Origin: Raillietiella orientalis
Taxonomy: Eukaryota
NCBI GenBank assembly: GCA_036172245.1
Contig: JAYWIR010000025.1
Span: 186,001-250,000, forward strand
Direction: 5' to 3'
DNA length: 64,000 bases
The notes beneath the pieces were generated by a model. The model made no database searches. It was not told the origin of the DNA and saw only the letters and a program-made list of their open reading frames with translations. Positions 34,121 to 52,109 of this stretch are shown here, in pieces. The position numbers were made by a program, and so were the translations under genes. The first letter of the stretch is position 1, and each line of letters opens with the position of its first letter.

Positions 34121-36133
34121 AACAAGATGCTCCGGGAATTCCTTCCTTCCTTTCTTTCTCCGCTCCTACGTTTTCTGGCAAGGGACCGCAGCTCCTCGGA
34201 GCATTCCTTCAGGGGGTCACTTTGAACGTCCCTGAGACCTCCAGCTGACGATTCGGTTCGACTGCTCCGTGCGCTGAGTAGACCGCCAGCACAAATTCCG
34301 GTTACCACGTGCCAGGTGGAGCAGCGTGCACGGACCGAATCCTCATCCTCGCCATTCTCGTGTTCGCTTAGCGACGGAGGATGCTCCTGACAAAGAAAGA
34401 TCAAGGAGGTGCTTTAGGAGAACTCCATGCTTGAGAATTCATTTTCACATGCATACATTCACATTGGTTTGTGCAGTTTTTTGTTTTCTTTTCTGCCGTT
34501 TCGCACTGGTTGAGCTCGAAAAGTTGCAGCATCCCCTAGGGCTGTTCTTCACCCTTATGCAGAGGCGTGAAGTTTTAAAAGGTGGACGCTGAAAAGGTAA
34601 AGAGTTCCTCCCTAAAGTATGGCGCACCCTTACTGAGGAGGAAGAAGGAAATGATCACGGAGGCGCGCTGTAGAGCCGACGCGCTTCAGGGAGTCCGAAT
34701 CACGGGGAGATGGGACCATCACGTGTCTGGAACTTCCTGCTAGCTGCTTCGGGGAGGGGGAAATGTGATGCAGCGGCAGCTCAAATCGATTCGGTAACTC
34801 GGGAGACGGACGCTCCTCATGGGAAACAAAATAGCTCATAATCTCGAGGAATAATCGAAATCTCATTAGTGAACGAGTTGATACGTGAGCGAATGCCACG
34901 GAGGCGTCTGGAAGAACAGGAAGAGAGCCAGGGCGCTGGGGAGGATAACGACCTATCAGAACAGCGGAACGATTGTGGCGTGCGCGGCTGGCATGAGGGC
35001 TTAACGCAGTGACGCGAGATGCATGGAGGGGGTGCAACCAGAAGTTCGGCATCGAAAATAACACAACAGAAATAACACGCCGGAGGAAATCACGCAACCA
35101 CTTAAAGAGCTCTCAACTTGAACAGCTCCCGGCTCGTACTCAGAATCCAGGAATCCAGCAGGAAAAAAAGGAAAGGGAGGGGGGGGGGGAAGGAAGTGGT
35201 ACACAGAGACAGAATGCGTATTATTTGAACGTCGGCAGAGATGAAGTCGAAGAACAAAGACCGCAATACCCGATTCCAAGAAAAGGGCAGTAGCAAATTG
35301 GAGTAGAGACCCATAAACACAATGGAAGATCCAATTATTGTCGCAAACTGAATTTTGGAGCGGAACTTCGAAAGGGAACCTCCAGCAATATGAGAATCTT
35401 CCCGGCCATGAGAATAATTTCGCACGCTCTTCCGCTAACCAGCGAAACACCTCTTAACGAAATGCTGGGTTTCTCGGACGCAGCGGATACATGAGAAGAT
35501 GAACTGCTGAAATCCTTAAAAAGTAATTCATGCGCTTCTATTGACATGCATTGATGAGCTGTTGCATCGCTTTTAGGGGGGGCTTTACCTTTCAGGAGAT
35601 TCTCAGAACCAACTGCGTTCATTCGATGTTGTAAAAGATGACTTCTCAATGGAATGAAGTGCACTTGGAGGGACTTTTCAAAAGAAGAGGCCTGAAGGAC
35701 AGAATAGAATCCTTAGAAATTTGAAAAAAAAATGCATATGAGAAGGCATATTCACGCTATTTATCTTCTATTTTTGGAAGGACAGGTAGGTTGATAACCG
35801 GGAGAAGCCAATTCGGATGCACCGCCTTCACAAACACACGCAGATCCTACATCGGTCAGTGAGGAAAGCAAAGAGTTTCTCTCTTCTGGGAACGGAACGT
35901 AAGCGAAGCAATCTTAGGACATCAGACGCAAAGAAAAGGCCAAGTGCAAGTGCGATCATTAATAAAAAAGCAAAGAGGAAAAACGATCCACATCATATGA
36001 GAACCGCAGGTGGGGTGGAACGAATTCAACTGGCTTCAGAAGAAGCTCATCTTGTAACTACTTCAATAAGGCAGGTGGATCCTAAAGTCCTCTGAGGATG
36101 GCCTGGCCTCAGTATCTGCAGAGGCACCTTATT

Positions 36134-36160
36134 ATCGCTTCTCGGCCTCTTGGCTGAGAT
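36134..36160 (+). ncRNA. U2: U2 snRNA 5' fragment (nt 1-27), disrupted gene
   Basis: ATCGCTTCTCGGCCTCTTGGCTGAGAT versus metazoan U2 ATCGCTTCTCGGCCTTTTGGCTAAGAT: 25/27 identical, beginning exactly at U2 nt 1. Confidence 0.82.
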
Positions 36161-36665
36161 GGAAAGTACTTTCTGAAAACCAGCGCGTGCCTGGAACAGT
36201 CCAACCCACGCCCGGACCTCATGATGCAGGAAGGCAACCGTGTGGTCGTCCTGGATGCCGCCTGTCCGCCTGAGAGCAAGGAGGAAGTGTTCATTAAAGC
36301 CAAACGAGAAAAACAACCTAAGTATCAAAATACTGCTTAATCACATGACAAGAAGTGGATCAACCACCAAGGTTCGGACCCTAATTGTGGGCTCTCTTGG
36401 TATCTGGGACCCGATGAACGATGGTATCCTACGAAACTTGGGAATTCCATCAGGATGCTCTGAAAGAATAAGACGTCTCATGGTTGCTTCGTGTATCCGG
36501 AGTGGCCATGATGTTTATTGGACCCGCAGACCAGGACACCCTCTAGACAACGCTGTCCAACTGAAGAAAGGTGTAGCTGGAATGCAACCGAGGAGTAACT
36601 GATCGACAGATACAGTGTCACTCAGAAGATCCGGAAACGTCATCGCCCTATGCCGTAGAAAGGCT
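36157..36665 (+). mobile_element. 5'-truncated RLE-type non-LTR retrotransposon (NeSL clade, Utopia-like), frameshifted
   Basis: Across two frameshifts: RWKVLSENQRVPGT / RPDLMMQEGNRVVVLDAACPPE...KREKQPKY / LIVGSLGIWDPMND...RLMVASCIR. This is the PD..D..K..KY restriction-like endonuclease plus the GSLG.W motif. Stop at 36600-36602. Confidence 0.88.
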
Positions 36666-36703
36666 GCGTAGATGCGTTTATTATCTATTTATTATCTATA
36701 CGT
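36666..36703 (+). ncRNA. Probable degenerate continuation of U2 snRNA (about nt 31-69)
   Basis: GCGTAGATGCGTTTATTATCTATTTATTATCTATACGT aligns with U2 GTGTAGTATCTGTTCTTATCAGTTTAATATCTGATACGT at about 30/40 columns with 3 gaps. AT-rich, so less certain. Confidence 0.45.
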
Positions 36704-37399
36704 TTATGCTATTGTGTTTGCTATCTTGTATCACTCCCACATGAGAGGAAATCTGCAACGCGGCAGTGGGACTGAAATCGCCGGCAGAGGTAAAACGTGC
36801 CGAGGGATTCGAGAAAAGTCAAGCTCACCCGAGCCGGCATCCGATTTCAAGTAGGCTGGCTCTTCTAAAGTCTGAGGTCATCTTACCTGAAATCGGATGA
36901 AAACAAGTATCCTCTTCCTCACTCTACAGAGATATTTGGTATTCTCTGATGCGAAGGAACAGCTGCCTAGGTTATCGGAGCCGACTCGTGGTTTGCCGTT
37001 CTCAGTACGCTGTTTGGGAGTACTCAAAGAACCTGAGCAAAGTGTCAAAGATACCCTAGTGAGCCCTAATGATAGGCTGAGTTCACAGTGCACCAATTTA
37101 CCGTGATTTGCACACGGAACTGTGATTTCGTGCACGGAGTGTTACGGTGATCCCAAGACCCTGAACATAGATAAAGAAATTTCAGTGTATTCTTGCCGCA
37201 GGAAAGCACTTCCTCCGAAGGGATGCTGCATTGAAAGGTACTTCATCTTCCGCCTGGGGTGGGAGCGAAGCAGAGATAGAAAAGGGGATGCCTCGTATGG
37301 CGACATATGCGACATGGCTGTGTAATGCCTGCTTCGTTGAAGTCCTTCGCCGCCCTTGCAAATGACTGGCGTAGAATTTTCGCTTAGTTTGAAGAGATC

Positions 37400-49000: not shown

Positions 49001-50439
49001 GGGCTGTGCCGCTTGCGTTTGGGACTCTGAACTGTCCCTACCATACACCTGTGACCATCGCGCCACCTTCCTTGGACCAACTGGTTTGACCTCGTGAGGT
49101 TCGCGATCTGCTTGGTTCTGACTGTCCGTAGCCTTTGCGTGAATTCGCCTTTAGCTCTTGGATGGCAATTCACAACTTGATACCGGCTGTTGTTTTTCGA
49201 ATTGCTTTTTTTTTTTTTTCTTCTTCAGCTACTCTTCGTTGGATCGGTTCTTGTAAACACTTCCTCGCTATCAAAGAGAGCTGCAGTTTTTCGTGCATTA
49301 AATGAATGAATCCCTGTTTCAGTTTTCTGCTCTGGGCCCGACAGATCCTATGTTGATTTCGTAGCGTAAATGAAGTGATCCCGTCGTGTAATGCAGCATC
49401 ACTGGCGCGAGCAGCTCGTTGATCAGTTGCAAAGTAGATTTGGTTACATGAAGTGCGGCGGCAGCACGGTTTTGCTATGCGTTCTTTGAAGTGATATGGC
49501 TGCTCCACTGTAACAGCAGAGGTAACTATGAGCAACGGAAACCATGGCGTTCGTAGGACCAGACTCTTCTGCTACAGCTGTGCTTTCCTGATTTCCTACT
49601 CTGCAAAGAGCAACATTATACGGGGACAAGGTGATGCAGGAAATATCACCACAGTAGCACACCTGGTGACCTGGTTGCTTTTGTTCGGCGGAATCTTCCG
49701 TGTAAATGGAAGCCTGCTGAAAGCCAGTGTTTTCACAATCCATCCTTGCGGAAGTGATGGCTCTGCCTGTAATTACAGGTGATCACTTCCTCCTGACTTC
49801 CTTTGCTAGCTCATTGGTGTTCTGATAGTCAGCTGAGGATAAAGTAGGGAAACGGAGATGTGGCACTTTTGTTTGGTATCCAGTTCTCGGTGGGCGGAAG
49901 GATTCGAGATAGCGCTAATGCAAGATGAAGTCGACATCCTTCTCCGCGATTTGGGTTGTCTTTACGCCAGCATGACGTACCGAAGTGAGAGGTTCTTTAT
50001 AAATGCTGAGTCATACATAAAACATAAAGTGTTCTGGGTTGCAACGCTGTACCAAATGTGTTGCAGTCCAAGAAAGCCGTTCAGAAAGAGAAGGTGCCAA
50101 ATTTAATTAATAGATGTATAATCTATCCCAGTAAAGAGTAAACTTTGTAGTTACTTCTTTGTATAGAAGGCAGACACAGACTCCAAGATGGATACTTTTA
50201 ATCCGTTTAGATTATCAAGGCCAATTATAATAATGACCACATTTTTCCCACTCGAAATGATTTTGGTGGTAGGAAGACCTTTTCGAGTTGGCACATTGGA
50301 ATCCTTGGATCTGCTCTTCCTAAAACTATTTCGGATAATAGCTAGATGTTCTGAATCTCTGGATTCATATGCAAAGAGGCAACTCTTACATGATGAAAGC
50401 TTCGAAATGTATCGGAACTTTATTGTTCGTTGTGTGCAA

Positions 50440-51168
50440 TTACATAGCTTGATTTGCAAGGGGCTCTGGAGAGTTTTCTGCAGTTATTTTCTTCTCCCCG
50501 TCCTTGCGAGGCTTCCTGGACTTGCTCAAATTCCTTGGTGGGAAAGCATTGTCTGGGTTATCGAGTTGGTTATCGGTTTTCTTTTTCACGTGGGTTGCAT
50601 ACATGGCGCTTGAGTACCGGATGCAGGTAGCCACCATGCGATGTCTCAGTTCCACCAGCTCCTTCTTTGGTACTTTTAAGTACTGTATTGCTTCCTCGTT
50701 ACCAGAATCCCATGCTCCCAGAGAGCTGACGATGATCGCGTGTACTTTGTTTTCCACCACTTTCAAGTTGCATTGCTATATCCTTGTATTTTCCTTGTTC
50801 TTTCTGGTTGTGCTGAACATCTTTGTATTTTCGTGTGGGCAGCAGATGTCCAGCACACATATCCTGTTTCCTTTTTCTAAAACCAGATCTGGTTTTAGGC
50901 TAGAGGTGGTTCCTAGCACTCTCCGGTTTCTTGAGGCAAGAATCCACTTTGCTTCATCCATTGTGGCCTTCTTGATGATCTCTTGAATCGCATCGTGACG
51001 TGCCATGGTCAGAGGAACGTGCTTCTTGCATCTATTTAACACGTGAGATAGCGTTTCATCCTCTGTCCCACAACGCCGACATATGCGTTCATGTGTTTTT
51101 TTAGGTGCTCCAGCGTTGATTGTCAGTAAGTTCAGTCCTGCCGCATTGGTAAACCTGAATGTTCTTGA
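50440..51168 (-). mobile_element. 5'-truncated RLE-type non-LTR retrotransposon (NeSL/Utopia-like), one frameshift
   Basis: FRFTNAAGLNLL...ICRRCGTEDETLSHVLNRC...ARHDAI...LKPDLVLEKGNRICVLDICCPHE, then a frameshift near 50770 to IIVSSLGAWDSGNE...RMVATCIRYS. CCHC, RHD and PD..D RLE motifs are all present. Confidence 0.93.
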
Positions 51169-52109
51169 TTACGTTGCATTCCTATTTTTGTTTCAATGCC
51201 AGAAACTTGAATATAGGCATCCACACATCCGTTGTTCTAAACTCTCAGATCATTCGTTTAAAACGTGGTTTATCTTCAAATCTCAACTGCCGCAAAATAG
51301 GAATTTCAAGTGCCGGGATAATTATAGCTGAGCTTTGTATCACTCCACTTCAATGTACTTCAGGTTTTCGGCTAGGGCATTCGCCAGGATTCTCGAAGAG
51401 TTGTCTATTTACAGCTATGATTCCTTGTGCCGTGTGCACAGTTCTGTTTGCTATTAACTGACGTCTTATTTGAGAAGCCCAGCAAAAATGTCAAAGGGAA
51501 CGAAAGAGGCAGCTGATTTCCTGAAAATATGAATGGTCCTTTCCGCTCTCATCTTCTGCCTCCACTTGAGGAAAACAGGAAACTGTCCAAATGTGCTTTC
51601 TGTGTCAATACAAAGATCGATTCCTATGAGCCAAGGCAATTTCTTCTTACCCGAGGACTCTGTTCATACAGTATATGCAGCATAATTGTTCGACTACCAT
51701 CATCATCCATCCTCTGGATGCTTCTTTTGCTTTTCAGCTTTATCATTTAAGCATGTCTCAACATTTTACAATGCACTCGCCTGTGAGACAGCAAATCAGA
51801 TCGGAAACCCAAGAGGCCAGTTCATGCGTTCATCGTGTTTCGGACACTTTTGTAAAAAAAATGCTTCAGCCCACAGCTCGATCACTCTATCAAAATCCAT
51901 CTATGGTGGCTTGATAGATAATAGACAGAATTTCCAAGCTTAAAGTTTACCCTTTCCCCCACTTCTTCTGTGAGGATCTCATGGGCCCCGCTATGATGTG
52001 AAACCACTACGAAGAAAAGCATTTTCATATTTTATGTGGATGCTTTTTTTTATATATACATATATATTTTTTTTACAATAAACGCTCCGTCGCTACCGGG
52101 TAAAAATGC

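Follow-up and report, generated by a model that had tools for sequence, protein, structure and literature searches.

A dead Utopia-type retrotransposon copy capped with the 5′ end of U2 snRNA, probably formed as a chimeric retrocopy

The window analysed here is a 64-kb stretch of DNA (G000:C25:186001-250000) from a eukaryotic assembly of 210 Mb in 491 contigs. On its plus strand, positions 36134–36160 are identical to nucleotides 1–27 of the host U2 snRNA at 25 of 27 positions, and the similarity starts exactly at U2 nucleotide 1. The host U2 reference was assembled from loci of the same genome. It contains an extra A, which places host numbering one above human numbering after nucleotide 30 and which is also present in the fruit fly row of S1 Fig of PMC4640811. 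The Rfam U2 model aligns with its positions 1–27 to this cap at 20.5 bits (E 0.12), under the cut-off of 46 bits, and no match in an Rfam search of the 64-kb window attains the gathering score. The cap contains U2 stem I and folds as such (hairpin z −4.4). The A23G change in the cap (window position 36156) perfects stem I and is also found in 7 of 81 exact pattern matches, three of which are copies of one duplicated locus; it is either a U2 variant or a hairpin-driven mutation.

The cap runs straight into the coding remnant of a 5′-truncated RLE retrotransposon (36158–36602, plus strand), as stated in the preliminary description and confirmed by the alignment with host U2 and by tblastn. The remnant contains the motifs RPDL...LD, REK..KY, and GSLGxW, and its similarity to relatives in tblastn (E 7e-30) is distributed over three frames, 36160–36207, 36200–36331, and 36333–36557. 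The two frameshifts that had been claimed for the element are located near 36205 and 36335, and the stop codon is at 36600–36602. Neither a zinc knuckle nor RT was found in 36158–36602, and Pfam gave no match for the window pieces. Alignments with the closest relatives delimit a proximal 3′ UTR on the same strand (36603–36672). The 300 bases upstream of the cap contain no similarity to the element (12–92 of 100 control tiles score equally). An RH-like motif spotted upstream of the cap by eye was considered as element sequence and rejected, because control tiles score as high. Since the window copy lacks RT and a promoter and carries two frameshifts, it is a dead fossil with no evident function.

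The closest DNA copies of the element (L002–L005) are 68–72% identical to the window copy, with similarity beginning only at about 36158, and they have other sequence in place of the 27-mer. Because the relatives differ at its position, the 27-mer does not belong to the internal coding sequence of the element, and the possibility that relatives carry it as ordinary coding sequence, which had been named as a potential refutation, did not hold. The junction is unique to the window: the relatives match only from query position 59–61, and the other caps described below are joined elsewhere. Three nucleotides at the junction, GAT (36158–36160, plus strand), can be read as U2 nucleotides 25–27 or as element, and are found in the aligned place in L004 and L005, but not in L002 and L003. 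The overlap had been given as AGAT. However, the fourth place is occupied by G in L004 and L005, and there is no overlap in L002 and L003.

Judged by its testable features, the element appears to belong to Utopia. Utopia elements are RLE non-LTR retrotransposons of the NeSL clade that target U2 snRNA genes (Kojima and Jurka 2015, PMC4640811). Across the genome, the Rfam U2 model matched at 46 places, 38 of them above the cut-off. The best 12 of the 46 loci are all without the U2 5′ end; in each, an A-rich end leads into TCTGTTC and the remaining part of U2, which is the junction of Utopia and Keno in U2 (PMC4640811). The sister of the window copy in the RLE tree, L002 (three-row group, 98/95; 72% DNA identity), ends at U2 nucleotide 39 (40 in the host) before TCTGTTC, as does L004. 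A proposed check of the 3′ ends of the family was positive, and the second potential refutation, which included a lack of other family copies next to U2, did not hold either, as copies adjoin TCTGTTCTTATCAG in L002, L004, and 12 of the 12 best U2 loci. The RLE domain together with the TCTGTTC junction seems to fit the published definition of Utopia against Keno. Keno, of the Tx1 clade, has the same 3′ junction in U2, but an APE endonuclease (PMC4640811), and Keno membership was rejected because the window element has RLE motifs. The relatives L167–L169 show, in pieces, N-terminal zinc fingers, RT (RVT_1 E 9e-15), a zinc knuckle, and RLE, whereas the window copy contains RLE only. For the intact relative L169, similarity to R2 protein structures was detected (best E 3e-14). 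The best named homologues of a relative are RT proteins of tick, spider, and dragonfly with 37–44% identity, none of which is labelled Utopia; these arthropod proteins are far closer than R2 (170 vs 56 bits), and two of them are from species listed as Utopia hosts. The lack of a Myb domain is a Utopia criterion used in PMC13188248. A DNA search for the closest subfamily added one fragment (L174), and a UTR pattern search gave 15 matches vs 7 in the control, with the three exact ones being the input loci. The description of the window element as a fossil 5′-truncated Utopia-type copy with a short microhomology at the U2 junction was borne out.

The minus strand of the window contains a second 5′-truncated tail of an RLE retrotransposon (approximately 50417–51170), which includes a zinc knuckle and ends with AATAAA. 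This tail is part of a large sister group with 150 scored matches, and none of the 25 examined members has a U2 3′ flank or a cap. The sister group seems to be a Utopia-related lineage that lost U2 targeting.

The 3′ side of the window element can be read in two ways. A degenerate match to U2 nucleotides ~31–69 had been reported after the stop codon. Its first seven bases (36666–36672) belong to the element 3′ UTR, as they align with L002, L003, and L005, whereas the remaining 30 bases are about 71% U2-like. A profile of the four closest 3′ ends aligns with 36646–36672 and no further, with a weak score of 4.6 bits and the best match of the window elsewhere. Positions 36673–36702 on the plus strand are identical to U2 nucleotides 40–70 (host numbering) in 22 of 31 columns by hand count. 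This score was equalled by 22–23 of 5000 shuffles (p ~0.005), also with the duplication kept, and by 2 of 632 window tiles. The stretch is either decayed U2 or an AT-rich part of the 3′ UTR with an 11-nt tandem duplication. Its identity to U2 is 71% vs 93% for the cap (Fisher p 0.047), and no further U2 similarity was detected downstream of 36702. We are somewhat doubtful that these 30 bases are derived from U2. The following segment (36703–36751, plus strand) may be distal 3′ UTR, which would then end in GAAA, or simply flanking sequence. It resembles the distal UTR of one of the four relatives, L004 (9 of 3000 shuffles score equally, vs 293–804 of 3000 for the others), and a 21-sequence UTR profile detected nothing there. 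An alternative 3′ end of the element at 36751, where GAAA is located directly before the only TCTG within 36673–36800, fits as well as the U2 reading of 36673–36702.

Two 3′ ends of relatives are more complex. In L002 (2017–2100), the element is followed by U2 nucleotides 40–61 and then by more short U2 pieces from about nucleotides 19–41, which makes it a multi-jump junction. In L003 (1335–1365), TCTG and then a U2 3′ piece in inverted orientation come after the element 3′ end, which may reflect twin priming or two tail-to-tail copies.

The flank upstream of the cap contains, at 36111–36118 on the plus strand, an 8-mer, AGTATCTG, that is identical to host nucleotides 36–43 in the U2 target core. 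The 8-mer is present in 10 of 3198 40-nt tiles of the window and upstream of none of the 91 other U2 5′ pieces described below. By its sequence, it suggests a U2-like landing site. A candidate 5′ copy of the target-site duplication (36115–36126, plus strand) starts with TCTGCA and is separated by seven bases from the cap; AGTA precedes the repeated sequence at 36115, and together they form the 8-mer. The candidate 3′ copy (36752–36765, plus strand), which contains the TCTG following the alternative 3′ end, matches it in 11 of 12 aligned bases with a 2-nt gap. The candidate duplication is weak when considered alone, because an equally long match is seen for 22 of the window's 310 TCTG sites, and the 3′ end at 36751 was picked partly on its strength.

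The structure had been interpreted as a U2 gene split by the element. A genome search for an intact U2 gene across the insertion site gave three matches, all of which were fragments, and the U2 promoter was therefore deduced from a flank shared by four loci. Among the 91 U2 5′ pieces examined, only L010, L131, and L155 share an upstream flank (38–40 of 40 identical; median 11), and L169 holds a fourth copy of it. This flank is taken for the promoter side of U2. The promoter-borne U2 copies, all of which are interrupted, are located on very small contigs or clustered on contig C30, and intact U2 genes are probably missing from the assembly. In the U2 gene cluster (L168 and L169; G000:C30:2711000-2732000), two of the U2 5′ ends are promoter-borne, and several Utopia-like copies of different lineages are stacked.

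The promoter flank was not found upstream of the window cap (7 of 40 identical; 250-nt score of 16 vs 177–380). Searches for an empty site or a paralogous flank showed that both window flanks are single-copy at the sensitivity used, and the remainder of U2 downstream of the element amounts at most to the doubtful nucleotides 40–70, with nothing beyond. Furthermore, many non-U2 sites show this same arrangement of cap and element. The reading of the window as a U2 gene cut in two is most likely wrong. It could be retained if a real U2 gene was split here and its promoter and most of its 3′ half later decayed or were deleted, which we consider very unlikely. Real split U2 genes do exist in the genome (L010 and the L168/L169 cluster), the 30-nt match to U2 has a p of ~0.005, and the upstream 8-mer and the best part of the 3′ match (U2 nucleotides 44–69) are contiguous in U2 numbering. 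However, the flank test largely refutes a split gene, and the U2 similarity ends at nucleotide 70, whereas 13 of 15 examined 3′ flanks, a set mostly picked by U2 score and therefore leaning long, reach nucleotides 188–194. A split gene would also require the loss of the last 41–54 nucleotides of the UTR of the relatives. The two U2 halves differ in decay, and the flanks are single-copy.

Pieces of the U2 5′ end are common in the genome, since the U2 5′ pattern has 215 dispersed matches, compared to zero for the pattern read backwards. The 91 pieces examined besides the window come from 100 of the 215 matches; loci with such pieces include L019–L048 and L107–L166. Stand-alone pieces end at nucleotides 28–39, and 76 of the 91 end at nucleotides 34–39, just before the Utopia cut site. 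Duplications of at least six bases were identified in 28 of the 91 pieces vs 2.6 in swapped controls. The stand-alone pieces are tailless retrocopies of the kind known from therians (PMC5322556).

At least eight other truncated copies of the element are capped and have no promoter flank or have unrelated flanks. They include five of the 29 other loci (L076, L081, L089, L092, and L094), two of the 91 U2 5′ pieces (L139 and L152), and one of the four closest DNA relatives (L005/L171). In the U2-associated group, 7 of 30 truncated copies including the window are capped by hand count, vs 0 of 20 in the sister group; the automatic count is 5 of 30, L076 and L005 were added by hand, and 6 of 43 group-A rows without a protein block were left out. 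The truncation points all differ and the capped copies are located on several branches of the tree, and thus the caps arose repeatedly. Exact target duplications surround the capped copies in L076 (10 bp) and L139 (11 bp), and the duplicated target of L076 itself resembles U2 nucleotides 40–47. A match of at least five bases is present in six of seven capped copies with a chosen 3′ end vs 4 of 42 swapped pairs. The caps end at nucleotides 27–34 and are shorter than the stand-alone pieces, which end mostly at 34–38 (p 2e-5, with stand-alone counts taken after removal of six element-linked rows). Microhomology at the other cap junctions is 0–3 nucleotides, which counts against a consistent annealing signal, and the junction of L094 did not align with any relative. 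In an extreme case, L152 (303–390), a U2 cap is joined to only the last ~45 bases of the Utopia 3′ UTR.

The recurrence of the caps bears on the possibility that two unrelated events formed the window structure, with a stray U2 piece landing by chance in or beside an older Utopia fossil. Such a landing has a parallel in L117, where a U2 piece is located antisense inside an element of this kind. Nevertheless, no element similarity was found in the 300 bases upstream of the window cap, and caps are sense-oriented and positioned at the truncation point in the 7 of 30 copies, vs 0 of 334 control tiles. We regard a chance landing as highly improbable.

We propose that the window structure is probably a dead chimeric retrocopy that originated in one event, in which the enzyme, while reverse-transcribing the element RNA, jumped to U2 5′ sequence. 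The proposal starts from the observed parts, the missing promoter flank, and the recurrence; the RNA route and the jump are what we infer from them. TPRT is an established mechanism and would have operated here as follows. A Utopia-type protein would nick a U2-like site in ordinary DNA, and the element RNA would be reverse-transcribed from its 3′ end. After approximately 500–600 bases, the RT would leave the element at GAT and continue on U2 5′ sequence to nucleotide 1, after which the U2 nucleotide 1 end of the cDNA would be joined to the target. The U2 template could be the leader of the element itself or free U2 snRNA, and we consider the two about equally probable. For elements inside U2 genes, the U2 promoter probably drives transcription, and therefore their RNA would start with U2 nucleotides 1–38. 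In L151, U2 nucleotides 1–38 are followed by the 5′ sequence of the promoter-borne L155 (216 of 268), without the promoter flank, and lead into Utopia-like N-terminal frames. In L046 (1501–1628), U2 nucleotides 1–35 and a copy of 5S rRNA (Rfam 72 bits) form a direct fusion. To judge from these sequences, L151 would indicate the use of the element's own U2 leader and L046 that of free U2, and both templates may be used. No Rfam match to a ribozyme was found at the element 5′ end in L151 or L155. Another composite, L029 (1501–1580), contains U2 nucleotides 1–34 and a short duplication followed by what we take to be a U6-like 5′ end, for which Rfam gave no U6 call.

The window contains an snRNA 5′ end in sense orientation, fused to a 5′-truncated LINE and without the flank of an snRNA gene. 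A single target duplication around both parts is a candidate at the window and is clear in L076 and L139. However, a duplication around cap and element is equally expected under the main alternative, in which Utopia inserted at an older U2 retrocopy. A U2 5′ retrocopy, comprising nucleotide 1 to ~36 or reaching nucleotide 70, would have been present first, and Utopia would have read it as half a target and inserted at its end, with the cap trimmed back to nucleotide 27 via the GAT microhomology. The 215 dispersed pieces, their ends just before the insertion site, and the excess of duplications around them are in line with such an insertion, as are short internal U2 pieces ending near nucleotides 67–69 (L104 and L105). 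Moreover, U2 nucleotides 2–34 and 40–63 are located around the element in L081, and the 5′ junctions of Utopia are known to vary, with loss of U2 sequence (PMC4640811). On the other hand, the promoter-borne insertions (L010, L131, L155, and L169) retain U2 to nucleotides 33–38, which exceeds the length of most ectopic caps. In L076, L152, L171, and the window, a TCTG-like sequence precedes the cap, at the position expected for a duplication made by Utopia, although such cases are few. The shorter caps and the TCTG-like sequences favour a jump over insertion at an older retrocopy, on few cases, and we consider the latter unlikely.

Several components of this explanation have already been published: Utopia and its off-target copies, snRNA/LINE chimeras, and tailless U2 copies. 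The window element and its relatives resemble published Utopia in the RLE domain, in relatives that end exactly before TCTGTTC, in variable 5′ junctions, and in the presence of copies at U2-like sites that are not in U2 genes, as in crocodilian Utopia (PMC4640811). In the parts of that paper that were compared, 5′ U2 flanks are described as belonging to the target gene, for some families the truncated copies have no flanking U2, and no duplications are reported for the arthropod families. Truncated copies capped with U2 nucleotides 1–30 at promoterless sites and inside a duplication are not in the text compared, Fig 1C aside (PMC4640811). The combination of an snRNA 5′ part and a 5′-truncated LINE within one target duplication is known from chimeras of the U6/L1 type (Doucet et al. 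2015, PMC4476161). According to the portion consulted, these are mostly formed by U6 or U6atac with L1, L2, or RTE, and internal switching onto a 3′-truncated U5 is also described (PMC4476161). In contrast, the chimeras here combine U2 with an RLE element that itself targets U2, and make up about one-fifth of the truncated copies in one group. Template jumping was reported for the RT of R2 (as cited in PMC2912911).

The approximately 200 stand-alone U2 5′ pieces with short duplications resemble the tailless, 3′-truncated snRNA retropseudogenes (Noll et al. 2015, PMC5322556). However, these are described, in the sections compared, in L1-bearing therians, and the window piece is joined to an element rather than standing alone. 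Crocodilian SINEU elements with U1 or U2 heads are similar in that a U2 5′ end was added to a retroposed body, with a proposed template switch (Kojima 2015, PMC4494074). As far as the consulted part describes them, they are multi-copy families of shared structure, whereas each capped copy here has its own junction. A U2-headed SINE of the SINEU type was rejected for the window, because many copies with one head–body junction would be expected and the window junction is unique. Within the literature searched, which left most subscription papers outside its scope, we found no publication that describes truncated Utopia copies with a U2 cap at sites outside U2 genes.

We speculate that the jump could be a routine step, in which Utopia completes aborted reverse transcription by jumping to its U2 leader (nucleotides 1–38) or to bound U2 snRNA, and that the same machinery scatters the stand-alone U2 5′ pieces; this extension is tentative, and we think it rather less probable than its opposite. 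If it is true, the window copy would be a record of 5′ joining assisted by the target RNA in an RLE retrotransposon. Independently of the mechanism, a piece of U2 next to a Utopia copy should not be scored as a disrupted U2 gene unless the promoter flank has been checked. The way in which RLE retrotransposons such as R2 and Utopia attach their 5′ ends is of practical interest for gene insertion tools of the R2 type. The many independent U2-capped junctions in one genome constitute a natural data set on template jumping, of modest importance.
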